A stretch of 64,000 nucleotides of DNA from Marsupella aquatica. Taxonomy: Eukaryota; Plantae; Marchantiophyta. This document shows positions 1-24,932 of this stretch, piece by piece. A program made the position numbers and the translations under genes. The stretch lies in NCBI GenBank assembly GCA_973895155.1, contig OZ316891.1, positions 8,929,875 to 8,993,874 on the forward strand, written 5' to 3'. How positions within the stretch are numbered: the stretch's first letter is position 1; the number at the start of each line of letters is the position of its first letter. The notes beneath the pieces are model-generated. The model did not search any database. It was not told the DNA's origin and worked only from the letters and a program-made list of their open reading frames with translations.

Positions 1-79
1 TTAAAATTTGTCAAAAATACCTATTTTGGATCGCACGTGGTTCCTAAGATTTTTGATAGTCAACCCCCCGAGCCCGGGA

Positions 80-1230: not shown

Positions 1231-3245
1231 TGTCCATTGTTGGAAGTGGGAGCTTCATTGCACTGTCTTTCCAGTGCAACAGCCATTGTCGGACGGTGGT
1301 GGGAGGAACTAAGGACTTCCATTTGTGGGAGCAAGTTCGGGCTTTAAGGGTAAGCGCATGATTGTGTGATCATGCGATGGTTGGAGTTTGGGTTTCTCTC
1401 TGTTTTTTTGTCTTAATCACAACCTGGACCCTCTTTCCGACCTTGTCTCAATGTTCATAGAGCTTTACATGTGCCTGCAATATATGTGTTGTCTTAAAGG
1501 ATCCAGACAGATTGAATGTAATCAGTCTTAAAAACTATTCGTGCGAGGACTGCTCTGCAGAACAATTGAACACCATACACCTCAAGCTTATAATTGCAAA
1601 AACAAAATAAAGCTTACTATCTCCAAATGACAGTGTTCCTTTCTGTCTGCTATTGATTTGCTGATTTGCTGATTTCTGATTTCTGATTTTGTTATAGTGG
1701 AACATTAAACTTCTGTTGTGGTCTGATGATCTCCCTTCCTTAGCAACCATGTCATCATTCCAATCAATATATTGCCTACAGTCCAAGCAAGAGAGATGAT
1801 TATACCTCATAGATCGCTAATGAGCACTTCAGGACCTGTGGAACATAATGTCATCGTACGAGAAGAGTAAACAAGGACCTGGGCCTCCATCTGGTAAAAT
1901 GTGCTCGTGATTAAATGTAGCCAACCAACCCATGGTGAATGCCATCCTACGGATGTAACTGCGCCCACTTTGTGTATGTCTCCTGTAGTTCCTCCTTAGC
2001 ATCAATTTTTTGTGTCTGAGCTGTGTTCAGTTTTGATAAGTTATTGTGTTGTCTTTTTGTCGTCTGGCAATTATTGCCTCAAATGCTGCTGTATCTTTTT
2101 CTATCTCTTCCAGTATTTCATCGTGTTAGCATTGGCAACATTTGGTGTTTATGCGGCTGATGCCAAAAGTTTTCGGCTCGACCCTGTTTAATGCTTGAGT
2201 GGGCCAGGATTGTTTCTGCCTGAGTGGAAGGCTGGTCTGTTTAATGCTGCCTAATTGAACATAAGAATCTAAGAATCTGCTAGTAAGTTCATGGAGTTTA
2301 GGCAAATCAAGATGCAGCACCCTTGTACCCAAAAATTCTTTTGGCAATGTTTGCTCTGTTTGTTGTGTTGAAAACTTTATTGGCAGTGTCTGACCATGAA
2401 AGTCAGCCTGATGTTTTGCCATCAAATGATTTCAGTCTTTTACTTGAAACAAATGAATTTTGTTACAGAGAATGATCCAGAAGAAGTCTTTTCACGTTAG
2501 AGGAGTACTAACCTTCCTAGACCTGACGCAACTTGGGATGGATCATCGCCTGGTTATCTCCCGCTTTAGACTCTGGGTAGAATTTCCCGATGCTATGCAA
2601 GGACAAGGTGAGAACTTTATTCACAGCCTTGACCTAGGTTTACTTCAGGGCCACTGCATTTTTCTCCTTTGCTAGTTGCTGCATTTATCATTTGTCATGA
2701 TTTGATTGTGTGATTGTTTTGAAGTCGTAGCCGTGGTCAAAAGCTGGTCTATAAAAAACGAATTTAGGTTGCTGCTGTATATAAAGCACAGCAGGATCCA
2801 GAACTGGAAAACTGTCCCAGCAAATTTAAATTTGTAGCTCTCACTACTTGAATATATAAATTTTCCCTGATCGGTCTTAGCCTGCTACGCACAAGGCAGG
2901 CAATGAAACAAGTCTGTCCATTTTAAAACTTGAGAACCAATGCTTTGTTGAAACTCAATTGCTATTTGTTCTGTGTTGCCCTTACAGATTTTAAAAAGGC
3001 AGGGTGAGTGAGCACTGCTGGACAGCAGGCGAAGGCATATAGGTTGCAATATTTGTGATTGCTTCCAATCATAGGCCAAGGTTGTTTGCGCTGCTCAGTC
3101 CTAGTGCTTTGCCATCCATTGGTTTATGCTGACCCTTGTGGTTACATGTCATATTTTATGCTGCACCCTCATTCTTTTGTGTCATGCTGCACCCTGTTAT
3201 TCCTTCGTGTTTCACAATCTGATGTAGGTCTGAGTGTGCAGGACC

Positions 3246-3905
3246 ATGGCTCGCAATAAGCAAAAGGCCATGAATCGTTGCAGAGGTGAATCCTCTCAAG
3301 CACCTCAATTGTCCTTATATTCAGACATTGAGATTAACCAGAATAGTCCACATGTATGTGCAATTTGTGATGAGGGAGGGGATCTCATTGTTTGTGATGG
3401 GCCTTGCCACCGACATTTTCATAAGAATGTTTCCTGTCCTTTAGGTCAGCAATGGCTATGCCCAACTATATCCCTGATTGATGGCCATGTTGGAGAATGG
3501 CTTTGTGTTGATTGCAAGAATGATGAACATTCTTGCTTTAAGTGCCATGTGTCTGGAAAAATTGGTGAAGAGGTAAGAAAATGTCCAGACCCTCTCTGTG
3601 CCCGGTTTTACTGTCGGTAGTGTTTGGTTCCTGGCACAACATCATGTGGACTCCATATTTGTCTTACTTGTGGACAGGGGCCCAATGATGGGGCTAATGG
3701 CTTTTTGGTTCAGTGCATGAGGTGTCCTAAGGCATGGCACAAGGACTGCCTGCTGTTTATCCAGCAGAGGGGATTTGCCCATGATTGAACAATTTGGGAT
3801 CACTCAGCGCATGGGCAGCCCAAGAAGGGGATGTTTTACTGTCCTGACCATGACATTGACCCTACACTAGGCACTCCTGCTAGGAGCCACATATCTTGGA
3901 TTTGA
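3246..3905 (+). pseudogene. EDM2-like (NSD-type) composite PHD finger cassette carried by CACTA-1, two in-frame stops
   Basis: Read-through in one frame: CAICDEGGDLIVCDGPCHRHFH...WLCVDCKNDEHSCFKC...CPDPLCARFYCR*CLVPGTTSCGLHICLTC...LVQCMRCPKAWHKDCL...HD*TIW...MFYCPDHDIDPTLGTPARSHISWI*. Stops at 3618-3620 (TAG) and 3786-3788 (TGA). The H-x-ID-x2-LGTP-x-R-x-HI tail is characteristic of plant EDM2 PHD regions. Confidence 0.8.
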
Positions 3906-4506
3906 TTGAGGCTGGATGGAACACAAACTTGAGATAGAGCTTTTTGATGGTTTCACGTGGACTTAAACAATTTTCAGAGTGCTACCACATGTGGACTATT
4001 TATATGCAGTTTGATGAACTCCTCATGTATACACACTCTACGACAATGCATTGCGGATTGAGGCAATTAATTTTGAGAAATCAACTTTATTATCTTTTCT
4101 AGGGTAGGATTCCGATTTTCAAGCATGTGCTTTGAGTTTGACTTTCCTCCATATTGATGTCTAAACTTCACTTGTAAATTTGTCACTGGTGTCACAAATG
4201 TTACTTATTCCAGACCTGTCTACTCACATTCCTAATAGGCAAACAAATACCTGGAAATGATGAAGGCACAAAGATTTATGTTCATAGTATCATTCTGATG
4301 ACACTGTATGTGATGCTCTATTTGTATGCAAGAAGGAGAAGGTGCCTGACTACAGTGGATTTGAGAAACTGGGCTCTGTGGGTTTGAGCAATTGGACTGT
4401 GGTTGGCATCAGTTGTACAACTGTGACGGTAGGCCCAATTTTGTATGCATGTCACACTGATTTAGTTTGAAAATCATAGTTTGAATACAATTTCAATCAA
4501 GCTAGC

Positions 4507-7500
4507 ATGGCACAATTGCCACAGAATATGTTAGGTGTGGGTAGAACTCCAAAGTTGCCGCTCTTCCATCCAGGTAGAGTACAACATCGTGATGATACTT
4601 TGTGGGTTTGAGAACAGAAGGCCTGCCACAAGAGTGGGGACCATAAGATGTACTGCCCTTGTGTGAACTGCAAAGGGAATTATAGGACTAATCGGAATAT
4701 TGCTAGAAGGCACCTTATTAAACATGGTCGGTACCCCGCATGTCGAGTGTGGGTGGGAGAGGGACAGGACTCTTCTGATGAAGAGTGGGGTGTTGACTAC
4801 ATGTCACAACATGGCCCTAAGGCATTGAGGGTAGCAAACCTTCAGCAGGCAACCTGTGCACAACAGCCAATTGTAGATGTTGAAGAACATTTATTTGTAG
4901 ATGTTCCAGAGTATCCAACTGCGGATGTTCAAGAACATCCAACTATAGATGTGGAAGAACATATCAAGGCTCTACTGGAAGAAACGTTGTTGAGAACCAA
5001 TGAAGAATCCCCTGAGCATGAACTAGATGATCAGGACCGTTTTGACTTGGATTTTGTACTTGGGGATGATGAGAGTGAAGGAGGTGCCCATCCTGTAAAC
5101 CCCCTTGAAACCTCTGAAACTCCTGTGGAGATTGATCCTGCACAGTTATCTTTAGATGCAGCAATGCAACCTTTGTTCCCAGGCAGCAAAATAGATGTTG
5201 TGTCATTCATGTTGCTTCTGCTAAACATCTGTCATGGCCATGGATTCTCAAACAAAGGAGTGAATGCATTGTTGTCTTTGATGGGGGAGCATGGTATGCC
5301 TGCAGAGCATAATCTGCCCAAGAACTTATATGCTACAAAGCAGCTATTGAGAAAGCTTGGCTTGGATTATGAGAGAATCCCTGTCTGTGAGAAAGGTTGC
5401 ATGCTCTTTAGGGGTGAGAATGCCAAGTTAGAAAATTGTTTAGTGTGTCAGCAGCCCAAGATGAAGAGAGTGGGGAATTCATTATAGGCAAGGAAGGTGG
5501 TGCGATATTTCCCTATAATTCCCAGGTTGAAGAGATTGTATGCCACTGCTGGTACATCTAAACTCATGACTTGGCATCATGAGAATAGAAGCACAAACAA
5601 CATGGTTTGGCACGCAGCAGATTCAAAGGCTTGGAAGCATGTGGATACAAATATTGATCGGAAATTTGCAGCTGAACCAAGGAATGTGCGATTTGGGTTG
5701 GCACTTGATGGGGTGAATCCCTTTGGGAATAATTCCACAGCTTGGTCTACCTGGCCAATACTGTTGTTGAATTACAATTTACCTCCTTGGCTTACCACCA
5801 AGAAGTTCTTTGTCATGCTAGCTATGTTGATTCCACGACCTGATTCAGTAACAGAGGAACAACTGGACATAATATTGGGCCCATTCTATGAGGAGCTGGA
5901 GCTGTTGTGGAAGAAAGGAGTGCCCTGCTTTGACAAATTGCCATGCCCAGGATTGTCTCAACACTTCAACCTTAGGGCTGTGCTATTGTGGACAATCAAT
6001 GATTACCCTGCATATGGTTTAATATCTGGACAACAACACTCTGGATACAAAGATGTGTCATCTGGGGGAATGTGTGGCACGTGGTTCTAAGCACTTGCAG
6101 AAATTAGAGTACAGTGGCCACCGTCGATGGTTAGCAACAAGGCATCTATTTCGTAGACCAGACAATGCACAATACTTTAATGGTGCAATTGAGAGTCGAC
6201 CTACACCATGTAGAATGACAAGCTCTGATAGAAAGAAGTGCGGAGACGAGACAACAGAATATATACAGAACGAGACAAGCTCTGATAGAAGAAGAAGGGA
6301 GGAACCAAGGTTGAGGATGAGAAATGCCCCATAAAGGTGCATGGAGTGAAGAGGGCTACTGGTCTGTACAAGTTGCCCTATTGGAATGTAAGACTCCATA
6401 CTACTACAATGAATTTCTGCAATCTCTTCATATGACATTGAAATATATTCTCTTCATATACTTCCTGTACCCCAGATTTTGTAATTGTTGTATTCAATGC
6501 ACTAATTTTTGAATTGTGTCCACTACACAAACTACTGCCCAGTGATGCCAAAAGTTGTATTCAATGCCCTAATTTCTGAATTGTGTGTCCACTGCAGAAA
6601 CTACTCATTAACCATTGTCTAGATCCCATGCACTGTGAAACAAATCTTGCACACAACATTGTGCACACTATCATTGGGACCAAGGACAGTCCTTCTATGA
6701 GAGAAAACATGAAGCTCTTATAGGTGCGCCAACACCTATGGCTTGTACCCAATCCAGCTCCCAAGCGTAACGATGACAAATTGTTGATGCCCCCAGCCCC
6801 ATATTGCCTGAGCAAGAAGGAAAGAACAAGGTTCTTGGAGGTTTTATTGACCTTGAAAGGGCCCACTGGTTTTTCAAGTTCTTTGGCAAAGTGTGTTACA
6901 AAATCCAAGAAACTCTTTGGGTTGAAATCACATGATTTCCACCAACTCATGCAACAGATTCTCCCTCTGGCAACAATGGGATTACTTGATGAAGGGGTTT
7001 GCTTGGCCATAGCTGGGGTGAGCAATATCTATCGCCAGATCTGTAAGAAGGTGTGGGACCCTTCAATGTATGAGAATTTGATGATGGATGTTGCATTCAC
7101 TCTCTACATTTTGGAAATCCATTTTCCACCAAGCTTCTTTGATGTCATGACCCATTTAATGATTCACCTAGTGGAGGAATTAGACTTGCGTGGCCCAGTT
7201 ACAGGCAGATGGATGTACCCAATAGAGAGGAACCTGAAGGTATTGAAGGGTTATGTACGAAACAAGGCACGTCCAGAGGCTTCTATGGCTGAAGGCTATG
7301 TATTAGCTAAGTCTTTGGGATTCCTTTCGGAATACATGATTGATGCAAAGGGAGAGGGAAAACGAACCTGGGAGTTGGAGGAGGATGCTGGCGTTGCAAG
7401 CATTGTTTTGGAAGGGGCTGCAAAGGCGATAACTTTGGATTGGTCTGAAATGATGGCCATGCATCATTATATATTGGAGAATGAAGAGACAGTGGCTCCA

Positions 7501-8446
7501 TGGCACTGCAGGTACATAAACCCTAAATTATGTTGCCCCATTGTGTTTGTATATTCATGGTGGATCATGCACTAATGTCTTCAGTGTTGTTGTTGCCATG
7601 CAGGATATATGATGCTACCAATGAGACTGTTACCAAACGAAGAGTGGATTTCCGGAAGGAATGGATGAGGAAGCCTGCCAATGGAAGAAAACCAGTGGAA
7701 TTTCCCGCTGACTTCCAAGAATTGCCACCTTTAGTCAATACCCATAATTTTGAGAAAGAGTCTGAGCGGTCATTACTATCTGCATACTCCACACCACCTA
7801 GTTTGAAGGCACGACTGTATAGGGCATGCAGAGCCTATGGGCACCATTGGAGGACTATTCTATCCTTGGGGTGTTTGAGTGATTGTGATTCTGGTGCTTT
7901 CAGCACTTTTGATTTTGGGATGGCTTCTACCCCACTGAGAAGCGAGTGGACAGGTCTGGTGCAACCATAGAAGAATCTATACACTATGTAGGGGCCTTGA
8001 CAGATATCTTGGTACTGAATTACGGCAGCTTGAGGAAAGAGGTGATTATTTTCAAAGGGAAATGGGCAGATCCATCATGGACTCCTAAATCCTCTGCCAG
8101 TATGAGGTATTCCGAGTCTGGTCTTTGGCAAGTGAATTTCCATAGAGAATTGGGTGTGTCCAAGAAAATGGATTACGTTTTCCCAAAGCAAGTGGAGCAG
8201 GTTTTCTTCCACCCCAATGAGAAGGGGATAGCATGGAGAACAATCCTCCACAAAGAATCCAGGTCCACAAGGGTGTTAGGTGATTACACAGACGTTCATT
8301 TCCATGCTACAATGGAAAACAATGCCAAATTACACATCGAATTGGCTAAGGCCTGTAGGTCCAGATCAAATCCAGGACCAAATACTGGTCCCAAACGAGG
8401 CAGAGATGCAGAGGGATCTGCAAGAAAGGGCAGGCCTAAGCAGTGA
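4507..8446 (+). pseudogene. CACTA TnpD-like transposase (transposase-associated Zn domain, Transposase_21, DUF4218, DUF4216), disrupted
   Basis: ATG at 4507 is in frame with YCPCVNC...HLIKHG. Motifs RYFPIIPRLKRLY, RNVRFGLALDGVNPF, YNLPPW, WTINDYPAYG, YKLPYW, HCLDPMHCETN, FPPSFFDVMTHLMIHL, RWMYPIER, QVEQVFF. Introns at ~6388-6597 and ~7512-7603. Premature stops (e.g. 5485, 6721) and frameshifts near 6050 and 7945. Confidence 0.93.
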
Positions 8447-8989
8447 ATAGGTTTTAGGTGTGTGAAGTCCATAGATGGACTACATGTATGGACTATATAT
8501 GAAATCAGACTAATGGTTTACCCATTTGTGCAGTTGGTGAATGCAGCCTGTGAAAGGAAGATTGCAGGGGTTGTCACATTCTGTGAATCCTTATGAGGAG
8601 GCCCGAAATTGGAACATAGAGCATAATGTCCAAATTATGCGTGATCTAGGACTGGGGCCAGATTGCAAGCTGATGTGTGTGTTAATATGTCTGTTGCAAA
8701 TTTGATTCAGTAGATGGAGTTGTCAAGTTCCTTTTTCGTTTTCATATTCCAGATTGGTCTCATACTAGTATGGATCCTGTACATAAGTACTAGTGTTACG
8801 GTGTTGTAGATTCATTTTGCATGTATGTTTGATCTGCATTGGTGTATGTTGATGATTGCTTTAATTGTTCCTTAGAGGCCCAACCACACATGTACAACGA
8901 GAGAGAGGAATGCCTGCTTTGGTGAAAGGTACTTCAACTAAAACATTGCCAAAGAGGAGGAGCTCTAGACTATCAGAAGTTACCAAGGT

Positions 8990-11695
8990 GAACATGGCAG
9001 AGTCTGGTGATGATGGCTGAGGATTGTGACATTGGAGGGTCAGAACCAGAGAGTGAACAACAGGTAATGCTTGAACTTCATCATCCTAATAGGAAGGGAT
9101 CCTTGTCCCTTTTTCAAATTATATGTTGATATGCTTACGTTGTCCATGATATAGGTACAGAAACAAAATTGTGGTCCTAAGAAGATTGGGCCTGGTGGAG
9201 GTGGGCTGGTGAGATGTTGGAAAGACCCAGACACTGGACTCTTATATGAAAGTGAGTGGATTGTACTGTTCTACTTTTCAAGTGTGTTTGGAAGTTGATA
9301 TTCTACTTGGAAATGAAATTAATTGAAGTGCTTTTGATGTTGTGTGTTTGTTTAGTGGTTCCATCAGCATCTGAAGGCAGATAAGGTCAATCTGATGTAC
9401 TACATTCCAGAGGATCTTCAAGTAATACACAATCTGCTCGTCATGCATATGCAAGTGCATTTGCTGTACTTTTCAATCATGTACATAGTTTTTGATTGAA
9501 TGCATGTGTGTGCATTGCAGGCGGGGCCTCTGAGATGCGCAGGGAACAAAGGCATGCTAAGAAGCAGTTTGATAATATTGCCAAACAATGAAGGGATTGC
9601 GGAGAGTTGCCCAAACACATTAAAGTGAGTATTGTACTTTTTTTGAATGTAGATTTAGACAAATCTGATCCTCTCTGTTGTTGTGTGTATAAAACCTGGA
9701 CTCTGCATAAATTCTAGAGTTATGATCTGACATTGTCTGTGAAATGCAGATTTATGACAATGATATTGATGATTTTGATGGCAACAAACAATACTGGCTG
9801 GAGGAACTTTGTGGCAACGTACTCAGAGTCTTTGATGTATCAAAGCCAAAATGGACTGATCATCCACAAGTTCATACAACCACAGTGTGGAATAACATGG
9901 CAGCTGAGTGGGAGTATGTGGGTGGGGAATTTATTAAGACCAAATTCTAGAGTCATTGTCGTGGCATATTGAAGAGAGAGCGCCATAAAATGCATGTTTA
10001 TTGGAAGAAAGTTTTCAATGAGGATCCAACCAAACCTGGGCCATCTGGTGTTGATCCAAAGAAATGGGCAGCTTTGGTATCTCATTTTACCAGTCTAGCA
10101 TTGATATCTTTGAGTAAACAGATGACTGATAAAAGAGCATGAGTGCAAGATACCTCTCACTTTGGAAGAGGAGGGCATGCTGCAGCAGCAAAGAGAATGG
10201 TAAATTGTGGCCTATATCATTTTCACTATCAATTCTGTCTTGTTTGTGAATCTTGATGAAAACAGACTCTATGATTCTCATTCATTGTGTGTTTGAACAG
10301 AAGCAGAAGAGAGGATCAAGCCCAGGTATATCTGACCTGAAAGAAAACCATGGTAGTCAGGGTTCATTGCCAAAGGTGACAATGAGCTCATCATTGGCAA
10401 GTGCAGAAGGTCAGACTGGTAGTTTTGTGGGAGCAAAGGTGAGCCAATCATTGGCAAGTGGGGAGGGTAAAAGTGCTAGCTTACTGGGGCGAGGAAACAA
10501 ACATGGATCAGCTGTGAGTATTGTCATACCAATTTGATTTGTACATCATTCTCCATTTGACAGAGCTAGTGTTGTGTCGTTTGTAAGTTTGACAGTGAGA
10601 ATGTTGTGTTGGTTGTGGTTCATTTACAGACCCCACATTCAAAAGAAGAGATCACTGCCATTGGGGCTATGAAATTGGATGTTGATGAGTTGAAAGGCAC
10701 TGTGAGAGACTTGACAAACATGATGACTATGTGGATGGCACATCACACCAGTAATGCACAAGTTCCAACAGTTGTACCTAGTCACAGTAAGTTGACTACA
10801 GCTACCAAACAAGGTAGTAAAAAGCGATCTCTTACTTTTTCAGGTGATAATGAAGGTAAAATTCTCTATCATGTATACACTGTCCATTCAATGTAATTAT
10901 TGTGATGTGTATATGTCATTGCATGTTTATAATGTTCTTGCATGTTTTTAGTGTGATTATATGTTGCTGGTGTATACATATTTGTTTATGCATTTCTTTT
11001 GTGTGTGTTTTATGACAGCATCTTTAGGGGAGCCTCCAGTGTCGCAGGGAAGACCAACTGACACAGCTAACAGTACTCTGAAGCAAACTGAATTGGAAGT
11101 GAACCTTTTGCCATCTAAGTTGCCCAAAGAAGCCATTTCAAATGCCTTTCAGTTGCCAGAGGATAAGTCAAATCAGTTGACACCAGATATAACCCCAGAA
11201 TCATTTGAGTTGCCAAAAGAAACTCCTGTTCCAAGTGAGCAGGATGACACTCCATCAACTAGAAAGGGAAAGAAGAAAAGGAAGAAAGGATCCTCAACAA
11301 ATGCATCACCTGCACAGAAGAAACCAATGCAATCTCCTAACCCCATTGCAAAGGTAAATGTGTGTTTGATTTGAGTGTTCTTCTATCTTTCAATTTTTGT
11401 TTATTGCATTTTTAACAAAATGTGTTGTTCATAGTTTGCAAGAGGAGATTTGGTGAAGATGAAGAGCGTTGTGGACAATTCCATGATAGTGGCAGAAGGT
11501 GAGGTGACAAGGTTGCCAGGAGAAGATAAGTTTCATTGTGCAGATTTTGAAAGCCCTTTCTTGCGAGTGCGTGTGATTGAAGTGTTTGTAGATGTGGCAT
11601 TGCCATTTGCCAATGCAGGGGAGAACAAGTCTAGATTATCTGATGTGAAAGGGATGAATGCCCTATGGAACTCTAGATTGCTTAAGAAGCAATAG
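8990..11695 (+). pseudogene. CACTA-1 second gene (TnpA-like), multi-exon, with C-terminal Tnp1/En/Spm-like domain; partly disrupted
   Basis: Series of short GT-AG-flanked exons (~9521-9624, 9750-10199, 10301-10513, 10630-10855, 11019-11353, 11435-11695). The last exon, IVAEGEV...FHCADF...RVRVIEVFVDVALPF...KGMNALWN, resembles the Transposase_23-type domain. Position downstream of TnpD is typical. Exon limits are approximate. Confidence 0.65.
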
Positions 11696-12049
11696 AAATA
11701 GCACTCTGTCAAGAAACACTAGACATGATAGAATGACACCTCTGTTTTTCTATAAACATGCAGAGTGATTGGTATGTCAGGTTGTAACAATTGACAATCT
11801 AATATTATTGATGTCAATGTAATTTTGTTTCATAAATTTGCATTGAGTTCAATAGTTACTGTGAGAGTTATGAAGGTATCTTGTATGAATGTCAATTGGA
11901 TTTGTGATATATATTGAATGTTTCTTTAAGTTTTCATTCAGCAAATCTATTGAATGGCTTTGTAATGTATGATTTTTGATTTATATGAAGTTTTATCTAT
12001 CATGATCACTTAAATTTGAATTTCTCCAAATCATTGAATACTTCACCTG

Positions 12050-12758
12050 AATGACTGGCTAGAATGACTGATATAATGGTCATTATCCACAACTATCTTT
12101 GTGACCAATATGACTCAACTCGGGTCATTAAAGACATTGACTAAATGATTCAAAGAATGACATATACAATGACCGTTCTCATGGTCATTATAAACAAGTC
12201 CACTATGACTCACTTTATGTCATTCAAGACATGTCATTAATGACTAATGTATATCTTTACGTGCCTCCTCCCAATTGAACCACGTGTCTCAATATGACTT
12301 GTTTATACTGTAGTCATTTTGGACACGTCTAAAATGACCCAAATATATTGCCAAATGGTGAATACTCTTTGAACCACGTGTCACTATTTGATTTATTATA
12401 TAATGTATGTCATTTTGGACAAGTCCAAAATGACCAATGTTATTTGTTTTTTGATTGCCACGTGTCATTGTGTGATTGGGTACAGGGACTGTCGACGCTC
12501 AACGGCAATTGACCATTGATGGTGATTTGTGTCGTCATTTTGGACCGTTCAATATTTATGACCATATCATAAAAATGGTCATTTAGGATAGCATGAAATG
12601 ACCACATGTTTTTAGCGTCATTTGTCCAAAAGGACCGTGACCAAAATGTCCGTTGTGACGCGTCTGGAAAGACGAGAATGATTGCGTCATTGTTTTGTTA
12701 AAAAAACCTGATTAATAGTCATTGTTTCCGTCATAAAATACATTGTTTTCTACTAGTG
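12050..12758. repeat. CACTA-1 right subterminal repeat array (ATGAC/GTCAT in both orientations) plus TIR
   Basis: Repeated AATGAC, GGTCAT, CCACGTGTC and GTCATTTTGGAC motifs packed up to the terminal TAGTG. Confidence 0.8.
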
Positions 12759-13881
12759 AATGTACCAGGAAATTTCACTGGTGTTTTTGATGCAAAGAAA
12801 GAATCACTGAGCATGGAGATTGTGTGCAAGAGTTTGGGCACAGAGATCGGTCAATTGATCGAGAACAATCTTCGCACAAAATTTTGTCTTGAGCTTTGTG
12901 AAACTGGCAACATTGACTACTACAAGTCAAAGTTGCAAGATAATGTTATGAAGATGAAAGCAAAGGAGAAAATGCCCATTCAATTAAACCGCGACTACTT
13001 CAGAGGTCAAGAAATACAAGGTGCAACTGTATGACAAGATGGAGAAGATCACAAGGCTCAAGAAATAACTTGCCTAAAAGGATGGTCAATATAGTCAAAT
13101 AATGCAAGTTCAAGAGGTAGATAAAGTCATTCTTGATTTAAAGAATCAAGTTGCATCACAAGAGGTGATCATAAGCAATCCGCAAGAGGAGATTGAGCAA
13201 ATGAACACTGCTGAGGTGGATGGTCAGTCTGACAAGAAAAAATCAAGATGCAGCAACTACAATTATATGAATTTGCACATGATTGATCCTACAGGACAAT
13301 CTAATCTTTTTCCGGATGTGGAAGTTGATCCAGAAGATGTTGATAAATTTTTTGAGAAATGAAAGAGCGATGAGAGTATGGCCCAATTTGTTCAAGAAAA
13401 TGATGGAAGATATACTTGGTGCTTCTATCCATGGGGTCCTGAATCTGTTTCCATTTTGGGAATATGCGGTCACTTATGGCATCATGCTTGCTTGTTTAGG
13501 TGGATGAAGAAGAGCCGGAAATGTTGATGCCGAAAACCATTTCATGAACGAGAGTATAAGCAACGGGGTTGGTTGAAACAAATGCCACCAATGGAGACAC
13601 AACAAGATAGTGAAGCAATGACTCAAGATAGTATTACAATGGCACACATTGATTCAAGGTCCATTGACAATTACGTAGTCAATGAATACAACTTGTCAAA
13701 TGGTAACTTTGACAATTTTTTATTCAGTGGTACATTCCAACAGTGGAAGGAATATGCAATGGCTAATCGACCAACAATAGATGAGCAAAACATGCAGCGA
13801 TCTATTCGTTGTCATCGCCGTCGTCAGCAACTGGCGGAAGTGAAAGCAGAAACGCAAGACAAGAAGAACCGGAATGACTAG
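12759..13881 (+). pseudogene. Decayed coiled-coil + RING-H2 finger gene, 5' part cut by the CACTA-1 end
   Basis: Reading the 13102 frame through stops gives ...GRYTWCFYPWGPESVSILGICGHLWHHACLFRWMKKSRKC*CRKPFHER. This is a C-x-H-x2-H-x2-C-x3-W RING-H2 core with the first Cys apparently mutated (TGT>TAT). Upstream segments are coiled-coil-like (12759-13200). The frame is already open at the TIR junction. Confidence 0.65.
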
Positions 13882-14969
13882 ATTGTATACACAATGTTTA
13901 GTATCGCAGATTTTATTACATAGTATTTCTTGCATAAGACATGCACAATCCGGTATAGTATATCACAGTTTATCGTATAGTATTAGCCTAAATATAATAC
14001 CTAAACAGAAGTCAAGATTGTGAGGAAAAGTGTTTTGTGTTATTGTTCTCATTTTCTTGCAACTGTCAATCGAATTGATATTGTCTTGTCATCCATTGGA
14101 CCAGATCTGCGCTATGATATTCTTCAAATGCACCAACACGAACATCTTTGTTTGATGTATATATGGATTTGTCATGTTTTGCCTTTTATACATATTTAGT
14201 GTTGGAGAAGCATGTTGTCCCCACTGTGCATCATCAGGTAAGTTGCGCAAACAAAGTTGGTGTTGTTATCTCCGGAAAAAGCTCTGATGCAACACCTCGT
14301 CGTTGAAATAAGTAGGAAGTACTTGCTTGGACATTATTTTGTAGATTCAATATTGGGTATGTGAAGGATGGGTTTGGTTGGGAAGGCATTACAAGTTTGC
14401 ATCAAATGAGTAGTCCTTGTCATCCTGAATTTGAGACTCATCGATTGTAGGAAACATCATCAAATCCATATCATCTTCTCATTCTTCGACATCACTCATT
14501 TCAGTATCTGGTGGAATATGAGCCAACATGTCACCATCATTGTGTAATGACAATCCTTGCAAAGCCTCATCTGCGTCATCAATTGTATAAAAATCCTCCA
14601 CATCATCCTCTCCAAGAACCGCACACCCTGGGCCCTCACTAAGGAAAATGTAATGAGATATACCTGTGACCAAAGCCTTCCCAAGTACCCCTTGTTACAT
14701 TTTGGAGTCTAAACATTTAAATCTATCTTGTTCGTTCTAAATAGAATTTCAGTCATATATAAAATCCTCCTAGGTTATTATAATCTTTGATATTTTAGGA
14801 TTTAAAATACCCTTCATTTGTTATAAAAACAAGGTTTAGAGGATGCATATAAGCGTCTTCTTCATCGTGCCATCCATTTTAGGGCAACCTCCCATTGAAC
14901 GACTTCAAGAGCCCAAAACCCAAGTTACACCCAAATAAAAGAGGGTCGGGGAGGGAGTTCACTACAACA

Positions 14970-15395
14970 CTACCTACACCTTTTGCGAACTTGAAAGCAT
15001 CGCAAACAACAAAGGAAATCAAAAAACAAAACTCGCCTTTGCGAAGTATCGCGCATCGCAATAGAATCGCAAACTGCGAAGCCCAAAGGTTCGCACCCGG
15101 TCTTTCGCAAGACCTTTGCAACGCCTTCGCAACTTGTGACACTAATAGAATCGCAAAGGACTCACATTTAAGCGACTCCGTGGGCGTCGCGAGAGGCTTG
15201 CGATAATAATCAAGCAGTTCAATATTTGCAATCCCAGGAGTTTGGTAATATGTTTGCGATATTAAGTGAATGGTAGTTATGCCATGAAGATCGCTTCGCA
15301 TTTTTGTGAACTTATGTGGTTTGCATAATGTTTGCGATACCTTTAGTATGGTAAATATGCGATTTGGGTTGTTTGCATAGGTTTCGCAAGATGTC
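14970..15395. repeat. CACTA-2 left subterminal repeats (TTGCGAA/TTCGCAA, ATCGCA)
   Basis: Many copies of TTGCGA/TCGCAA in both orientations directly inside the TIR. Confidence 0.8.
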
Positions 15396-15645
15396 TTAAG
15401 GCTAGGGTTTAGATTTAGAGTTTTGAATTATGGTTGGGGTCTTGTTGGCCAACACGGAGAATGAGGTCTGAATCAAAATTGCTTTATAGAAAATTGATAG
15501 GTACACAAAAATTAGGGTTTCCTAAACCCTAAACCCTAGATGGGTGTCATATGACAAGCTAGGTCCCTATAAGACTACCCATGATATCAAAACTATATAC
15601 TACACTAAGTAAATGGGCATCCCATAGGCACTACACCACCAAGCT

Positions 15646-17572
15646 CTAGAATGGGGTCCTCCTACTCCTTGTCGCCGGCCTCTTCCCCTTGTCTCTCTTG
15701 CGACGATCCGGACGTGGCACAGGAGGTGGTGCTGGCTGCTCCTCCACATCTGGTTCCTGCTCGTCCTCGTCCTCATCCTCTTCCTCCCCCTCCTGCTCGG
15801 AAACTCCTCCTACTGGTCCAGATCCACTACTCCCTCCTACCTTGGGCCCCTTTGTCGTGGTCCCCTCATTGTTCTCATCGGTGCTGCTGGTATCACTGGC
15901 ATCCTCATCATCCTGTTTGCACAGCACAACGCCAAATTGGTTTAGGTTTACGGAATGAAAAGATAAGTGGATTGGGTGGGAAAAACTGAAGGGGATACAT
16001 GCACTTACAGTCGCCAACTCTGCGTCAACCAAGTCAAAGAGATGTTTGGCTCCATGCGCAGCTCCTATCTCCATCTCTTTTGCTGTTATCTTCCTGCGGT
16101 ACCTCTTATACTACCACAACCAAACATTCCAAAACCAAAATCAATCGAGGTTAATATGCTATAAACCCAAGAAAAATGCATGGAGGTGCTAATAGGGTGC
16201 CCCCTAGAAGACAAAACTGGGCTCAATAACCCTTAGCAGTATTTTTTAAACATAATACACACTTGCGAAACTCCCCACTTTGCAAATTCAAATAAATTGG
16301 CTGCTTGCAAAGTAGTTTGCGAAGCGGGTTAGTTCGCAATAGCTTCGCATCTACAACTTTAAAAAATGCCATGATAGACTTTGCGAAACATTTGCGAAGC
16401 AACCCGCATCGCAAAAGCTTCGCAAACTCTATTTTTAAAAAATTCCAAGAAATCTCTAAGGCACGCAATGTGTCAGGGTGACCTAAAGTACAAGGCAGGC
16501 CGTAAGAAAGAAACAAGAGGTATGCAAGGGGGCATTCCAGGTTTGGATCGCAATTGAAAGCAAGGAAACAGAAGCAGGGGAGGAGAGGGCCCACTCACAA
16601 AGTGTGCTTTGAGGCCGGGAAGTCCACCTTGGCCCATCTTGTGCGTGGGCTTGGGCCGTTTGCTGACTCGCTCAGCTGCAAGGATGAATTTTTGGGGTGG
16701 TGCCCCCACTTCATCCACAATGTGCTGCATGTGAGACACCTTCTCAACCATTGCCTTGAGGTCTCGGTCGGACTTCCCGGCCTTCTGTGCCTTGGCTTCC
16801 ATCTCCTTCCAAAAGAGAAGGTTCCTGGCAGCTCTCATCTGCACCTCCACTTTGTAAAAGGCATTCCACACATCCTCAGTGAATTGCAGTGGCCTCCTCA
16901 CATTTCTGTACTCCTCCAAGTTTGTCAGGTAGGCCCTTACCTTCTTCCTATCATGGTACCGTGCTTGAGACATTGAATTGGAAATTCTATCTGCAAGCCA
17001 CTGTTCATCAATCTCTGCTCCATTTTGGAATGAATCTTTGATTTGACTCATTACTTTCTTCTGGTCTGCCTTGCTGAGTTTCCCCCACTCAACTCCTTGT
17101 GCAAAATTGGAGCGCACCATAAGCCTGATAGTGCTCTTTGCCCCGGTGTAGGCCAGTTCAGTAAGAATGCCTTCGATCAAGGCAATCATAGGCAGCTTCT
17201 TCTTCTCTTCCTCCTTCTTTCGCTGCTCCTCCCGCTGTGCTCTTACTCATCTCGTTCCTCTCTCCTCCTCTTCTTTTCTAGGGCAGCAGGTGAGACTACT
17301 CCTGCCTTGGCCCTCTCCTCCTTCTTACGCTTCTTCTCTCTTGCCTTCTGTTGAGCTGCACTCCTTTGCTCCTCCTCCCTTGCAATGTTCCCTGCATCTA
17401 CTCCCGTTTGCAAGGCTTGCCCTAGGATTGCACTCAAAGAAGCAATCCCTGCTGGTATAGTCAAATCTAAGTGGCTCAACTGTGCTGCATTGAGGTGCTC
17501 AGCCATCAAATCGGTCCATCGATTCCTCTCCTGCTCCCCATTACCTTCATTCCCATTGCCACTGTCACTCAC
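15646..17572 (-). CDS. CACTA-2 accessory (TnpA-like) gene, divergent from the transposase; one apparent frameshift
   Basis: ORF 17572-17243 joins, after a frameshift near 17245, to VRAQREEQRKKEEEKKKLPMIALIE...RRPLQFTEDVWNAF...KPTHKMGQGGLPGLKAHF. A GTGAGT donor follows near 16596, then further exons ending in an acidic/basic tail at 15646. The P-x5-W and H-x2-G-x-GG motifs resemble Ptta/Transposase_24-type proteins. Confidence 0.6.
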
Positions 17573-18915
17573 CCTGCCCCATCACCTCCATTTGCTCCAC
17601 TGGAATCCATAGCTAAGCCACCCCCCGAGCGCATGCGAGCTCCCTTCTCCCTCCCTACGCTTGAAATTTGTCAAATGCCGCTGACTACGCCACGGCCGAG
17701 TGCAAAAGTACAAGCGGGAAAGACTTTCGAAGCAACCTGTTTTGCAAGTTGCGATCCTTCTAGTTTCACATGTAGTTTCTCAATTTTGCGAAACCATTGC
17801 GACGTGAAAGGCTTCGCAACACCTTCGCTCTCTCGCAGAAATGCTCTTGGGCTCTGTTTTTCTGAAGGTCGTGCGAAAGCAGCAGCTTCGCAAAACTCAA
17901 TTCTAATTTGTGATGGTATTTGCGAAGGAAGCGGCTTCGCAAGACATTGGCAACTCGTCCCGGGGGGAATGTTGGTTTCATTTGAAAGGGTTTTTTTCAA
18001 AGGTGAAGTGGATCCCTCTATACTCATATTTGGAATGCTTTTTGGCCATGTTTTGGGTGTTAGATAATAGTTGAAGGCGGGTTTGAAGGGTTAGGCAGAT
18101 TTCAAGTTAATGGGTTATGTATGGTGTTGGTTTAGGCTAAGGTTTGGGTTTACATTAGTTTAGAAGAAACAATAAAGGTGTGGGATTTGGTTTACAAGAA
18201 ATAAGTAAGGTTTAGGTTTAGGGTTTTAGGGTTTGGGGTTTTTAAATAGAAAGGTCTCTAGGGTTGAAGAAAGGTTTGGGTTTGTGTGTAAGTCAGATTT
18301 AGGTTTAATAGGTAGTATGCGGTTTGGGGTTGAAGGTTTGGATAAGACAAAGCAAGGTTTCATGAGATTTATATTGCAGCCTTTTGGGTTTAAGAGAGGT
18401 TCATTGGGTTTATGAATCAAAAAGGGATTGGCATGGGTTTTGCTAACAAAGGAGGGGAATATATGATAGCTTGCAGGGTGCGGCACTTTTTGATGATTTG
18501 ATACTAATGCATATGCATTGTGAGAGCCCGAGCATCTGAAAGGTAAACATTGCATGATCGGCTCAAGTGTTCCTTTCATGTACTTAACACTTTTGGTTGC
18601 CACTATGTATAAAGGGGACATGTATATAGGGTTTTTTGTTCTTGTCTGGTCCAGATTATTGTGCTTACATATACATGGAATGGTTGCAGCTTTTCCCTCA
18701 TACTTTCAGATTGGGTTCATTAATTATCTTAGAGCCACAAGACCTATTGGCACTGCTGAGCCCGGGTCTCATAATTAAAGGTACCTTTTTTTATTGTTAT
18801 GGTCATTTTGGTTTGGGTTTCTTGTCATCATTATTTGGGAACTTTGATTTATATCATTTTGTGGTATGTTTTGGTCATAACATGCCCATTTTAATTATAT
18901 CTTGTTACAGGGGAT

Positions 18916-20068
18916 ATGTCTTCATCTTCTGAAATCTCCACCACAAACTCATCCTCCTCTGATGAAGATACACCACCTCCACCTCAACATCACACGACCG
19001 CACCTCCTCCACGTGGTCCACCCCGTCAACTTTGTGAATGTTCCAGATGTGTGGGTCAGGTTTCCCAAAAATCTTACATATGTGCCCAACATATTGAGAG
19101 ATATGGGCGTTGTGGACGTCATATGGCAGGGGCTTCTTCATCTCATATGGTAAGTGTTATGCCTTAGTTTTCCTACCCTATTCCCATTACTCAATGGTTG
19201 AAGGTTTTTAATTTCACACCTACTTTTGTTTGTTTTGGTTTCGGTGGAATAGGTATCCAATAGGCCTAGACCTGCGGCACAAGCACCCTATGTCCCATCA
19301 CAAGGTGTTCTAGATGCTATAGGCAATGCATTCTCAAAAGCCTTGGGTCTAGCGGCAAGGCCCACCAGTCCTAGGGAAGTTGGGGCTGAGGCTATTGTCC
19401 CAAGAGGGAGAAAGCGTTCCAAGAGGCGGGCCCGAGGGGATACTGATTTGTACAAGGCAGTGGTTACGGGTAGGTGGGGTGATTGTGAGTTCAGTGGCAG
19501 ATGTGTCCCTATCATCAAGGACTGGGATCCTGAGACTCTTGGTTTGCCACAACAGCTTTCCTACGGTGCGGAGGTAGAGGTTTGGGGTAGACGTTGGGTT
19601 ATCAAACCTTCCACACTTGGGGATAGACATGGCTATGGAGTTTTTGCCTGTGAGGACATCATTGTGGACGCCGAGAGTGGTAGAGGTGGACGCGGCCGAG
19701 AGGGGCCTACTTTGTTTCCTTATGGTGGACCCATCTACAAGAGAAGACATTGGAACATGATCCTTGCACAACACCCTGAGTGGAAGACTTATGCATTGGA
19801 CATGGATACTTTTGATGGAAACACTAGAAGGTATAGTGAGAAGCGTGTCATAGATGGGGACCCCATACGGACTGGGAATATTGTTGGTTTCATAAACAGT
19901 ACCGTGGGGATTCGCCCTAAGCGTAGGCAAAATTGTGAGTGGGTTTTCATTGAGGGTCCTCCGCCAGCACCTTATGGCCAGACATATCATCATGACCATT
20001 GCCTAGTTGTAGCGACGAGGACCATTAACTCGGGGGATGAGTTATTTACTCACTATGAGTGGGATTAG
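18916..20068 (+). CDS. Two-exon gene inside CACTA-2: transposase-associated Zn domain + SET domain (~349 aa), intact
   Basis: Exon 1 18916-19149 (LCECSRC...CAQHIERYG) ends at ATG|GTAAGT. Exon 2 19253-20068 follows a T-rich ...AATAG acceptor; both are phase 0. SET motifs: IKPSTLGDRHGYGVFACEDI, FPYGGPI, TYALD, IDG...GNIVGFINS, NCEW, LVVATRTINSGDELFTHY. Confidence 0.85.
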
Positions 20069-20244
20069 GGTTAAGTTAAGGGTCATAGGTGGTATGTTGC
20101 ATATCAAAGGACACTACATATGGCCTTTGGCCACATTTTGTATTTGCACCACAACCAATATTATTTCATTTTTTCACACCCCTAGCCCATTTTTGTGTGT
20201 GTTCTCTTTGCAATATAACTTTCAATTGTTTGCTTTGTTTTTAG

Positions 20245-23200
20245 AATGTGCGACCCTCTCCAAATATGTTACCATGGAGATTGAGAGCAACATATCGAGA
20301 AATGGGTATGCCAGAAGAAGGACATGGATCAGAGTCGTGCACTCCTCATCAAGTGCTAGTGGAAGCAGTAACCCTGATGAAGAGGTACCTCGGACGGATG
20401 AACAAGTAACTGATGACCAGGATAGAGCCATGGATGACTTCATGGTTGATTGCTTTGGTGCCGACAACCCTGGTGATGACCTTCCCAATGAAGGGCAGGT
20501 GCCCCCCAATGATCCACGCCCAAGACATACCCCTGAGGGACAACACCAATGGGAAGAAGCAGAGGAACATGCGCGAACACCTATCTATGAGGGTGCTCGT
20601 TTGAGTCGTCTTTCAGCCATCTTGGGGTTGATGAACCTACAGGCCAAACACAAGGCAAGCAATGCCTTGTTATCTGATATGTTTGCACTTTGCCATGACC
20701 TTATGTTACCCACTGAGAATGTGTTGCCAGCAACTTGGAAGGAGGCAAAGAGTGTTCTCTCATCTATTGGCATGGAATATCATATTGTTCATGCATGTGT
20801 GAATGATTGCATGTTATTTCATGGGGCCAATGCAAACATGACACAATGTACAACATGTGATGAGCCTCGCTATGACCCCAACATGCTAACAAAGAAGGTG
20901 CCAAGGAAGGCTGTTCGTTGGTTTCCCATCATTCCTCGGTTGTTGCACATGTATCGGTGTTCTGACTTGGCAGAGTTGATGGTATGGCATAAGACTCATT
21001 GATCAGAGTCTGGTGTCATGCGGTTGCCAGTTGACTCCCCTGCTCACAAACATATTGAGGCAACATGGCCAGACTTTGCACATGATCCTCGCCATGTGAG
21101 GTTAGGATTGGCATCTGATGGAGTTAGCCCTCATTCACTTGGAGGAAAGGGGCAACCTACATCAGTTTGGCCTGTGGTTGTCATGAATTATAACCTCCCA
21201 CCATGGCTATCCATGAAGAAGGGGTTCCTTTTATTGTCTTTGATTATCCCAGGTCCAAAAAAGGTGAAGAACTTTGACACTTACTTGGCACTATTGGTTG
21301 GAGAACTTCAAAAATTATGGAATGGAGTGTGGGCATATGATGGCAGGAAAATTACAGGAGGTTTTCCACGTGTCTTTCAATTGAGAGGGATCATTTGCTG
21401 GACAATGCATGACTATCCTGGTAAGATGACTTCCATGCCATTTGCAACCCTTCAATAATGTGTAGTTCCTATTGTTGTTTCTCATGTGACAACCCTAACA
21501 TAAAGTTTGCATGGTTTGATTTCTTCTATGTAAGCAGGGTTTGGTTTTGTCTCTGGATTGCAAACTCAGGGGTACAAAGCTTGCTCTACTTGTGGCCCAA
21601 GCTTAGAGGACATGGCCACATATTGTTCATGGATTAGAAAGATTGTTTATATTGGGCATACAAAGTTTCTTCCCATGGGGCATGAGATGAGGTTTGACCC
21701 ACTTCTATTCTCCTCCTTTGACATGCCATTTGGTGATGAGCGTGAAATTCCTGATGCAACAAGTTTTGCACATTGGAAGTCACTAGCTGATAGGGTGGCA
21801 GACCCAAATGATTCCTTCACCTTTGATAGGACAGGTTTGACCAGGTGGAGTATACTAGCCACTTTGCCCTATTGGTTTGAGTTGAAGATCCGCCATCTTT
21901 TAGACCCCATGCACATAGAGGGAAATGGGGGGAAGGCTTTGATAAAGCATTTTTATGGGGAGAAGGACACTAATTTTAGGGAGGCATGCGAGGAGATGGA
22001 AATGCATCCAGATGGAAATGCATCCAGATGTTTGGGTGACAACTGATCCTATCATAGGTGTGGAGAATCGTCCTTCTGCTCCTTGGGTGTTGAGTGTTGG
22101 CCAAAGACGTCAATTTTGGAACCGTATAGGAGAGATGCGGTTTCCTACAGGCTATGGTGCCAACCTTCGAAAAGCTTTTGGGATGGAGGACAATCACAAG
22201 TGGCCACGATATCTGAAGACACATGACTATTATCGCCTATTGCAGCATATATTGTCAGTGGCAATTATAGGTATAGGGAGTGAAGAAGTGCAAGATGCCA
22301 TCTGGTCATTGGGTCGTTTTTTGAGATGGATATGCTCAAAGGAGATATATGTAGAAGAGATCCCTAGGATGGAGGTATTGGCAGCTGAGGTGGTATGCAA
22401 GTTGGAGAAAGCCCTTCCTCCTTCCTTCTTTGATTGTCAGGTTCATTTACTTGTGCATCTTGTGCGGGAGGTTGCCATTGCAGGTCCAGTGCATTGTAGA
22501 TGGATGTATTGGCTTGAGCGTTACATGGCGGTGTTGAAGGCTTATGTACGTAACCGTGCACGGGTGGAGGGAAGCATAGCTACAGGATACTTGGCAGCAG
22601 AGAGTATGTTTTATTGTAGTAACATCTTGGCCACCATTGATCCTACTTGTCCACGTACTTGGATGGAGGAAAGAGAAGAGGAGGAGGACCGTTTAACAGG
22701 TGCCACAAAAACACGCATGTTGACATCAACAGAGTGGTCACAGTTGACAACATTTATGTTGAGTAATAGTAATATCATGGAGAAATGGAGAGAGTTTTAT
22801 GAGAATGCCAAGAGAACAAGTCAAAGAGCAAGAATTTTTCCTAAGATGCATGAGTATATGAAGCAAAAGTTGCTTGAGTTGGATGACATGGTGACACAAG
22901 GAGGAGATGTGTCCCACTTTCCTACCATCACAGATGACATTCGGACCATTGTTCATGGCCCTTTGAGAGTGGTGACATCCAAGACGGCTATGTGGACACA
23001 AGGGAGACACTTCAGGTCCACTAGTACCTAACCTTTCTTCCTCTATTAATTCATGTAGACCTTATTTTGATTAGTTATTTCTATTGTTTAAAAACTTTCT
23101 ATTATCATTAATGACATCCATAACTGTAATGTTGGCTTCTATATTTATGCCATAGGCCATGTGGGTTTTGGCTATTTAGGGATGGGTGTCATATTTTGAT

Positions 23201-23750
23201 GATTATTACATTAATGGTATCTTTTGTGTAATAAAAATTTATGGGTTTTGTTAATTTCAGGGTTTCTTCCCTTGATGAGAAGAGGGGTCGTACTTTTGAT
23301 TGTGGAGTTCAAGGGGAATTTTCTCAAGACTCCAGAAGCAGCCGCCATGACAGGAACATTGTTAGAGATGTTGTGCCACACTATGGGAAGATAGAGGAGA
23401 TCTTGGTGGTATCATATGACAACCATTCAAAGTTTGAGGAATATGTCTTCAAGTGCAAGTGGTTCAAAGTGAACCTTGTTGGTCAAAATTGCACTGTACT
23501 TCAAGATGAGAGTGGGTTTACACGGTTGAAGACAAGTGCCACTAGTGTTCAAGCATCTCATTGGCAAACGTCAGAACCATTTGCTTTCCCATCACACTTG
23601 GAGCAATGTTTCTACATTCCATACCCCTTAGACACCGAGTGGTCAATTGTCATCACCTATGTGCCACGTTCTCGTTCCATTGTTTTTGAGAAGCCAGATG
23701 TTATTGTATCAGACCTAGATGACCTTGAGGCCGATGAGGACCAAGTGTAA
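20245..23750 (+). pseudogene. CACTA-2 TnpD-like transposase (Transposase_21, DUF4218, DUF4216), lightly disrupted
   Basis: Motifs HACVNDCMLF, RWFPIIPRL, RHVRLGLASDGVSP, YNLPPW, WTMHDYPG, LPYW, RHLLDPMHIEGN, LPPSFFDCQVHLLVHL, RWMYWLERYM, FKCKWF, EPFAFPSHLEQCFY. Introns 21421-~21537 and 23016-23260. Stop TGA at 21000-21002; a 16-bp tandem duplication at 21995-22026 causes a frameshift. Confidence 0.95.
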
Positions 23751-24204
23751 AACATATTTATATGCACTTGGGTCCAGCCTAGACATTTGTTCATGTTATA
23801 TTTGATTTGTTCATATTTGGTGATATAAAAAAAGTATTGTCTATATTTATATTTGCCATTCACTTTTGAATGAGTCATACTCATGACATATGTATTGTAT
23901 TGTTTTATTGTGATCACTTGTGAATTTTACATGCAACTTTCTATCTAACCTCTGTTGCTCAATATAACTTTATTTCCTACTTATTCCATAATTTTCATTC
24001 TCACCCTCGTGTTTCCCTCCTCCGTGGTACGTTTGTCCCTCCTCCTCCCTTCCTCTTTCTCCTCCCTCCTTCCTCTTCCATTGTACTCCCTCCCTTTTCC
24101 ATCCTTCATTGTACCTCCCTCCATCCTCCCTTCCTCTTCCCTCCTGCCCCATCCATATATTGGACCATCCACCCTCTTCATTGTCTCACCTCACAATAAT
24201 CTTA

Positions 24205-24696
24205 ATTTTAGTTTGCGAACAATTTGCGAAGCTCCCAAACTCTCACCGGACTCGCAATTTCTATGAAGCTTCTCGTTTCTCAATATTTCCATACTATACT
24301 CTTCGCAAACTTGTGATGCAAATCAATCAAAAATTTCATATTCTCACCGTTTCGCAAATCTTCCATCCTCCGACATTCTTAAACTTGTCAAACAACTACT
24401 ATCGCAAAACATTTTCAATCCAACCTTCTTCGCAAATATTTACATGAGTTAGTTTTGGAGTCGGCGAGCAATTTTCCCGTCTTCAGAAGGCGCCTTTCCA
24501 TTCGGCGCGTTTCGGTAAATCTTGCAAAACCACTTACTTCGCAACGTATTAGCGATATAATGCGCTTCAAGTATTATATTTGCGATAGGGATAGAATCAC
24601 AAATTGCGATGCGGGTTGATTCGCAAATTATGCAAAGCGCCGCCCATCGGAAATACAAGAGCGTCGACAAAAATACCTTCGCAAAAGTGTCAAATA
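24205..24696. repeat. CACTA-2 right subterminal repeats (TTCGCAA/TTGCGAA)
   Basis: Dense TTCGCAAA/TTTGCGAA copies (e.g. 24212, 24301, 24351, 24429, 24678), preceded by a C/T-rich tract at 24000-24180. Confidence 0.8.
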
Positions 24697-24932
24697 TGTT
24701 GTAGTGGTTTAGGGTTTAGGCTTCTCGTGTGAGAACCGATAACTACGAGAGACTTATCTTGTCACATACCCTAAACCAATGATACTACGATAAGTGGACC
24801 AATCAAAAGTTGACATCTATCATAGAGTATTTACATACCCCACCAGCTAATGTAATGGCAACCAAATTTACAATAGTATGAATCCATTCCTTCTAACTAG
24901 ACTATGCATATATGGTGCCCTAGTAATTCATT

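Follow-up and report, generated by a model that had tools for sequence, protein, structure and literature searches.

The two neighbouring transposons described here, named E1 and E2, lie in a window of 64,000 nucleotides from the liverwort Marsupella aquatica (GenBank assembly GCA_973895155.1, contig OZ316891.1, positions 8,929,875 to 8,993,874 of the forward strand; positions given below are those of the window) and belong to the CACTA (En/Spm) type. On balance, we favour the explanation that they are two unrelated and broken CACTAs, and that each lineage possesses a chromatin-type gene of its own, which is a SET exon with predicted splicing in E2 and, probably, a stand-alone gene for an EDM2-type PHD protein in E1. 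The SET exon appears to be a long-standing component of one ancient CACTA lineage, in which it is kept under purifying selection. Transposon-borne SET genes have already been published; this one differs in its location within the transposase unit and in its unusual predicted splicing. The PHD mini-protein with its histone H3-like start is a new but less secure lead. E2 comprises the following features:

14960..24706, plus strand: full-length CACTA element E2, with 10-bp identical terminal inverted repeats (TIRs) and a GTT target duplication at 14957-14959 and 24707-24709
15646..17581, minus strand: accessory gene, oriented head-to-head to the transposase unit
18916..19149, plus strand: exon 1, with a Ser-rich start and a C-x-C-x2-C...H zinc finger, ending at the phase-0 donor GTAAGT; predicted to be common to SET and TnpD
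19253..20068, plus strand: SET exon, an open frame (PF00856, E 1.7e-5, above the cut-off) with a phase-0 acceptor and a conserved terminal stop
20245..23750, plus strand: TnpD body, broken (at least one stop, two frameshifts), which opens at a conserved phase-0 acceptor

The SET gene is a family trait of E2. A protein search yielded 42 homologues among 1821 candidates. The best named relative comes from Calypogeia fissa (72% identity), further named ones from several Sphagnum species and Riccia, and some of the homologue clusters contain more than 100 members, the largest up to 360. A scan of metagenome contigs added 54 SET loci, 41 of them close and 13 distant, and the SET queries gave no matches in the viral contigs scanned. 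Where the sequence of close loci extends 400 bp or more downstream of SET, TnpD follows in 21 of 26, and SET is truncated in the other five. Exon 1 lies upstream of SET in 16 of 18 close loci, the opposite-strand accessory gene was found in 8 of 12, and five SET loci also carry the left end CACTACAACA. Compared with the metagenome loci, the median pairwise ratio of nonsynonymous to synonymous substitution rates (dN/dS) reaches 0.23 in the SET core, against 0.09 in the finger and 0.12-0.16 in TnpD. The sequence-only reading of this DNA had suggested looking for conservation of such cargo within families, and in the case of SET this was found: the gene keeps its position and evolves under purifying selection. 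The arrangement extends to distant relatives as well. Locus L042 contains finger exon, phase-0 donor, SET exon, phase-0 acceptor and TnpD in the same layout at a SET identity of 32%; the finger exon is also retained in L043, where a CACTA end is present and the accessory gene is matched weakly (E 0.009). In a SET atlas search, streptophyte and haptophyte SET clusters appeared at 0.95-0.97, to be taken as a lead only.

Two observations weigh against this reading. The close SET loci resemble a large set of decayed copies that stem from few hosts, and they are hence non-independent; among the distant loci with flanking sequence only 2 of 9 have TnpD downstream of SET. Two of the distant loci without TnpD (L047:3459 and L053:3381) show an accessory-like H-x-x-G-x-GG-Y motif on the strand of SET, approximately 1.4 kb further downstream and with no Pfam match, which may reflect a different arrangement within this superfamily. 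Long degenerate TAGGGT/TAGTGG arrays occur on both strands upstream of the distant SET gene in L044 (6400-8850).

The SET exon is not simply placed next to the transposase gene. It is situated between the zinc-finger exon and the TnpD body, with its own stop at the end. The flanking signals are well conserved, with GT after exon 1 in 18/18 loci, AG before the TnpD exon in 21/23 and the stop after SET in 21/21, and the three phase-0 sites of E2 are found alike in L042. Furthermore, the first 24 codons behind the TnpD acceptor have a median dN/dS of 0.17, including the residues ahead of the first in-frame ATG. Given these conserved phase-0 splice sites, we infer two products that are built from one finger exon, finger-SET and finger-TnpD. 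The finger of exon 1 resembles, judged by eye, the Transpos_assoc finger that heads the TnpD of E1, although Pfam gives it no score; the Pfam search of the E2 TnpD body itself revealed no Transpos_assoc finger match. The splice forms are predictions from DNA, and against the scheme stands an in-frame ATG eight codons past the TnpD acceptor, which could start a finger-less TnpD independently of exon 1.

The structural model of the SET protein (mean predicted local distance difference test score, pLDDT, of 67) has a SET fold, as it matches SET domains in Foldseek (E 3.5e-6) and in VIA-align (Z 10.3, root mean square deviation 2.7, 122 aligned residues). The subclasses are tied, with top Z values of 10.3-9.4 for COMPASS, SET8, EZH2, PRC2, SET7/9 and SUVH6, and the SET domains of NSD proteins rank 10 and 18, behind other subclasses. 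The cofactor and catalytic motifs of SET methyltransferases are G-x-G, N-H and a terminal Tyr. In the homologues, G-x-G is retained in 36/42, F-[IM]-N in 34/42 and the terminal E-L-x-x-x-Y in 33/42, and the misses include truncated proteins. Enzymatic activity is called into question by two features: the usual N-H motif lacks its His in 42/42 homologues, and the protein ends three residues past the last Tyr, without post-SET cysteines. Nevertheless, active PR/SET proteins likewise lack this His, which makes methyltransferase activity of the putative enzyme plausible.

These features also bear on an alternative explanation, which we regard as less probable but worth serious consideration. It states that SET is no histone writer but a module that is non-catalytic or has a role outside histones, for instance in binding or methylating proteins of the element, and that the N-terminal arm of the PHD protein beside E1 is just a basic nuclear-targeting tail. 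The complete absence of the N-H motif and the lack of a leading SET subclass are in line with this explanation, as is the SET profile search against PDB sequences, which gave no match at E up to 1. The Lys/Arg-rich composition of the PHD arm would also fit. In contrast, the retention of G-x-G, F-[IM]-N and E-L-x-x-x-Y in most SET homologues speaks against it; the evidence on the PHD arm is given below.

The second element, E1, and the PHD gene beside it comprise the following features:

3246..3905, plus strand: PHD mini-gene, a single exon of 219 codons with stops at codons 125 and 181; matched by NSD-like PHD models of Pfam with E values from 1.6e-8 to 4e-4
4507..8446, plus strand: TnpD transposase, broken, with Transposase_21, DUF4218 and DUF4216 domain matches; the start codon at 4507 is inferred
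near 4630-4760, plus strand: Transpos_assoc zinc finger at the head of TnpD, ahead of Transposase_21
9726..11695, plus strand: fragmented accessory gene, TnpA-like in its position, without a Pfam match
12001..12758: subterminal ATGAC/GTCAT array and right TIR, which ends at 12758

The Pfam models matched by the PHD mini-gene carry NSD names, which led to the NSD label; the sequence-only reading had linked PHD and SET through their co-occurrence in NSD-family methyltransferases. Neither domain bears this link out. In pairwise comparisons, the PHD protein of the window scores 132, 132 and 124 bits with liverwort EDM2-like proteins, 118 with Selaginella EDM2 and 104 with an angiosperm EDM2-like protein, versus 79 with an oomycete multi-PHD protein and only 55 with an NSD-like protein. 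The PHD profile gives 116 bits for Selaginella EDM2 (positions 31-214) versus 45 bits for human NSD2 (positions 20-164), and the domain search of the window found no Pfam match for AWS or PWWP. We therefore rejected an NSD origin of the PHD cassette and, as SET shows no NSD preference among the SET folds, also one common to both domains. Instead, sequence comparison indicates that the cassette is EDM2-type and derived from the EDM2 cassette.

Moreover, the mini-gene appears to belong to an unannotated clade of stand-alone proteins of approximately 220 residues. When 1.84 billion representatives were searched with a profile, 516 matches resulted. The top five have lengths of 166-245 residues; next come long proteins that either bear the name EDM2 or are unnamed and from liverworts. 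Intact relatives exist at 81, 71 and 52% identity, and the end of the window frame coincides with that of intact relatives of 213-226 residues. In a quick tree of 73 rows, for which short fragments were excluded and the 45 top long matches and a few chosen rows were included, 22 short PHD proteins fall on one side of a long branch (SH-aLRT support 99). In an AlphaFold model of P0044, an intact PHD protein, the PHD cassette is well defined (mean pLDDT 88), while residues 1-30 reach 50-60, form no strand and leave the arm unplaced; Foldseek with this model returned partial PHD matches only. The full-length EDM2 layout is absent from the window protein, which has no C-terminal methyltransferase-like domain.

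The PHD gene quite probably lies inside E1. It is encoded on the same strand as the E1 TnpD, 600 bp from the inferred TnpD start, and shares the CpG depletion of the element: the CpG ratio is 0.17 in the PHD frame and 0.23 in the median of E1, compared to a median of 0.64 in 27.5-64 kb, where 4/109 windows are equally low, and the drop begins near 2800. Both stops in the PHD frame are single C-to-T changes from the residue of the closest relative, as found in methylated repeats. Furthermore, no clade member with its source shown has a genome-annotation name, unlike the EDM2-type proteins of Marchantia, Riccia, Calypogeia and Selaginella. All these observations speak against the rather unlikely case that the gene lies outside E1, as a decayed host gene or as part of another mobile element, in which SET alone would be true CACTA equipment. 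However, this case has evidence on its side, too. The linkage between PHD and TnpD is known from one locus, 600 bp of unassigned sequence separate the two genes, and the scans of metagenome and prokaryote-genome contigs for PHD loci were blank. The left end of E1 is outside the window: neither a left TIR matching the right end nor a left ATGAC array is present in 1-3245.

The most surprising feature of the PHD mini-gene appears to be its H3-like start. The window frame begins with M-A-R-N-K-Q and the closest relative with M-A-R-T-K-Q-K-A-Y-K; the N-terminus of H3 reads ARTKQTARKS (PMC4225485). The motif [AST]-R-x-K is conserved in 23 of 30 N-terminal arms, after three proteins without an arm had been dropped, versus 2.0 on average and 8 at most in 5000 shuffles, and it occurs within the first 15 residues in just 3/136 other profile matches. 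After removal of five near-duplicates it is found in 18/25 arms, and the median identity among those 18 is 44%. Ala7, which is outside the search pattern, is as in H3 in 11/18 arms, and the classical nuclear signal K-[KR]-x-[KR] exists in just 2/25; both findings argue against a mere nuclear-targeting tail. The definition of H3 N-terminal mimicry proteins, Met-small-R-X-K, applies to 48 of 20,996 human proteins (PMC8166343). In our clade it applies at the called start to 9/25 members (the window frame and eight others), and to two more of the 25 after a short in-frame extension.

Several points weigh against a functional likeness to H3. The similarity is short, with Thr3 kept in 3/18 and Thr6 in 0/18 arms, seven of the 18 motifs do not directly follow a Met, and a search of the 25-residue arm against PDB gave no match. 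It must also be mentioned that the family members were picked by eye from the match lists, that the motif was spotted before its test and that all proteins descend from one ancestor. Hence, the motif counts show conservation, not function. Three short EDM2-like proteins outside the tested clade (P0132, P0133 and P0155; 320-386 residues) also start with M-A-R-x-K.

The sequence-only reading had described E1 and E2 as different in TIR, subterminal motif, accessory-gene orientation and transposase, and all of this was borne out. Transposase_21 (PF02992), DUF4218 (PF13960) and DUF4216 (PF13952) are matched in both elements (5488-8446 in E1, 21003-23750 in E2), but the TnpD proteins share just 35-41% identity. 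The minus-strand sequence at the right end of E1 (12758) is CACTAGTAGAAAAC, whereas both ends of E2 (14960 and 24706) carry CACTACAACA. Near the right end of E1, ATGAC/GTCAT occurs 26 times in 12001-13000, versus the TCGCAA-type words of E2 with clusters at 15001-15400, 16250-16430, 17750-17950 and 24200-24690. The accessory gene of E1 is on the plus strand 3' of TnpD, that of E2 on the minus strand and head-to-head; both contain an H-x-G-x-GG motif. CACTA elements are defined by CACTA...TAGTG ends and a 3-bp target duplication (PMC4158355), and E2 shows both, together with a Tnp2-family transposase and a second conserved gene, the accessory gene, which is kept in relatives with a dN/dS of 0.27-0.35.

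The same reading had noted a histone-type domain immediately 5' of each transposase and proposed a possible general cargo slot, with chromatin modules that may be recruited repeatedly against H3K9me/H3K27me silencing and possibly act in trans. Put as a rival explanation, one interchangeable slot 5' of TnpD would be refilled again and again with NSD-like reader or writer modules that cooperate in trans. The domains themselves are genuine. Two elements with such divergent transposases each have a chromatin-type frame within approximately 1 kb of the TnpD body, and an acceptor-like AG just ahead of the PHD start codon means that PHD and SET could both be alternative terminal exons. Nevertheless, we consider such a slot improbable. 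Only two elements support it and their layouts differ, since SET comes after the zinc-finger exon and is thus part of the transposase unit rather than upstream cargo, whereas PHD comes before the zinc finger of E1. PHD is a probable rather than a confirmed cargo of E1, whose left TIR is not in the window, and its frame has two in-frame stops. Moreover, the two domains have no common NSD origin, and SET has long been a fixed component of its lineage instead of being exchanged: the PHD query matched 0/54 SET loci.

Under our favoured explanation of two independently acquired genes, one promoter of E2 would give rise either to a short transcript for finger-SET, which ends past the SET stop, or to finger-TnpD by skipping of the SET exon. 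Through the common finger, SET would be recruited to the element or its transpososome. There, its presumed substrate would be a lysine, either of a histone or of a protein of the element, and the methylation would help the element to stay expressed or mobile. In E1, the PHD protein would represent the histone-reading part of EDM2 only and would occupy H3K9-methylated element chromatin or compete with the host EDM2, while its A-R-x-K start would serve as a decoy H3 tip or an internal switch. The adjacency of E1 and E2 would result from a pile-up of transposons in this region.

Several published systems resemble parts of this scheme. In En/Spm of maize and EN/SPM3 and EN/SPM7 of Arabidopsis, one gene encodes TnpA and TnpD by alternative splicing, and anti-silencing by TnpA was reported (PMC13547354, bioRxiv 10.64898/2026.08.24.746577). 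As far as described, CACTA ends, the 3-bp duplication, TnpD domains, internal motif clusters and a second, here predicted, product of the transposase unit are shared with E2. However, the second product here is a predicted SET-fold protein, and the TnpA-like gene is separate, in E2 on the opposite strand. SET genes are also carried by HarbingerS and MuDR elements of Phytophthora, by red-algal Plavaka elements of the EnSpm lineage (PAG2) and by Helitrons (PMC12730594, bioRxiv 10.1101/2025.02.11.637652). HarbingerS, MuDR and Plavaka are, like E2, DNA transposons with a SET gene, and the activity of their SET proteins is presumed; likened by description, theirs are accessory genes, PAG2 with an adenine-methylase domain, whereas the SET of E2 resides within the transposase unit. 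The open-access literature, searched at the level of titles and abstract openings, gave no SET gene of a bryophyte CACTA, although Repbase Reports or supplements could describe one.

EDM2 of Arabidopsis has 2.5 atypical PHD fingers and is reported to bind H3K9me2 and to promote full-length transcripts over intronic transposons (PMC7529245, PMC4980392). The whole PHD cassette of the window protein, including the C-terminal part, aligns with EDM2 at 33-36%. The window protein differs from EDM2 as described in its size of approximately 220 residues, in the absence of both the RFD and the methyltransferase-like parts and in its N-terminal arm, which resembles H3. It also differs from the human H3 mimics by combining mimic and PHD reader in one small protein beside a transposase, a likeness seen at the sequence level. 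PHD or EDM2 in a CACTA and transposon-borne histone mimics were likewise absent from titles and abstract openings of the open-access literature, and could be contained in Repbase Reports or supplements. Element-encoded factors against silencing are known from VANC of VANDAL and TnpA of Arabidopsis Spm, which are sequence-specific DNA-binding anti-silencing proteins. Such factors are proposed here, too, and motif clusters exist within the element; however, theirs are DNA binders, with no SET or PHD mentioned in the accessible parts of the sources.

If true, a fixed SET exon and an H3-tipped EDM2-type reader would be element-encoded tools that act at the histone level, unlike the DNA-binding VANC and TnpA, and such elements may supply their own tools for handling host silencing. 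The SET exon appears fixed in the transposase unit of mosses and liverworts, CACTA elements account for 6.8% of the Sphagnum genome (PMC9946827), and the SET and PHD proteins are short and directly assayable. A more speculative extension, to which we assign little probability, is that bryophyte CACTAs are engaged in a histone-level contest, using a spliced finger-methyltransferase, an H3-tipped, cut-down EDM2 that decoys H3K4 readers or writers, and more such modules elsewhere at the head of the transposase unit.

Some further observations concern the elements and their surroundings. The TCGCAA-type clusters of E2 are not only terminal but also occur within the accessory gene and ahead of it; the related loci L005, L007 and L028 have clusters at matching places. 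The TnpD queries of E1 gave no matches in the viral or genome contigs scanned. An inverted 69-bp match of 84% between 1149-1217, left of the PHD gene, and 13415-13483, right of E1, has no Pfam match; it was considered as the left end of E1 and rejected, since it lies outside the right TIR, and it probably represents two pieces of another repeat. A hAT transposase remnant (DUF659 and hAT dimerisation domain) at 24933-26818 on the minus strand abuts the right end of E2, which fits a local pile-up of DNA transposons. The host genes recognized in the window, all on the minus strand, encode a short-chain dehydrogenase (29454-30083), a cellulose synthase family protein with RING finger (33929-38326), a DUF179 protein (42706-43548) and an Nrap-family protein (53219-56687).

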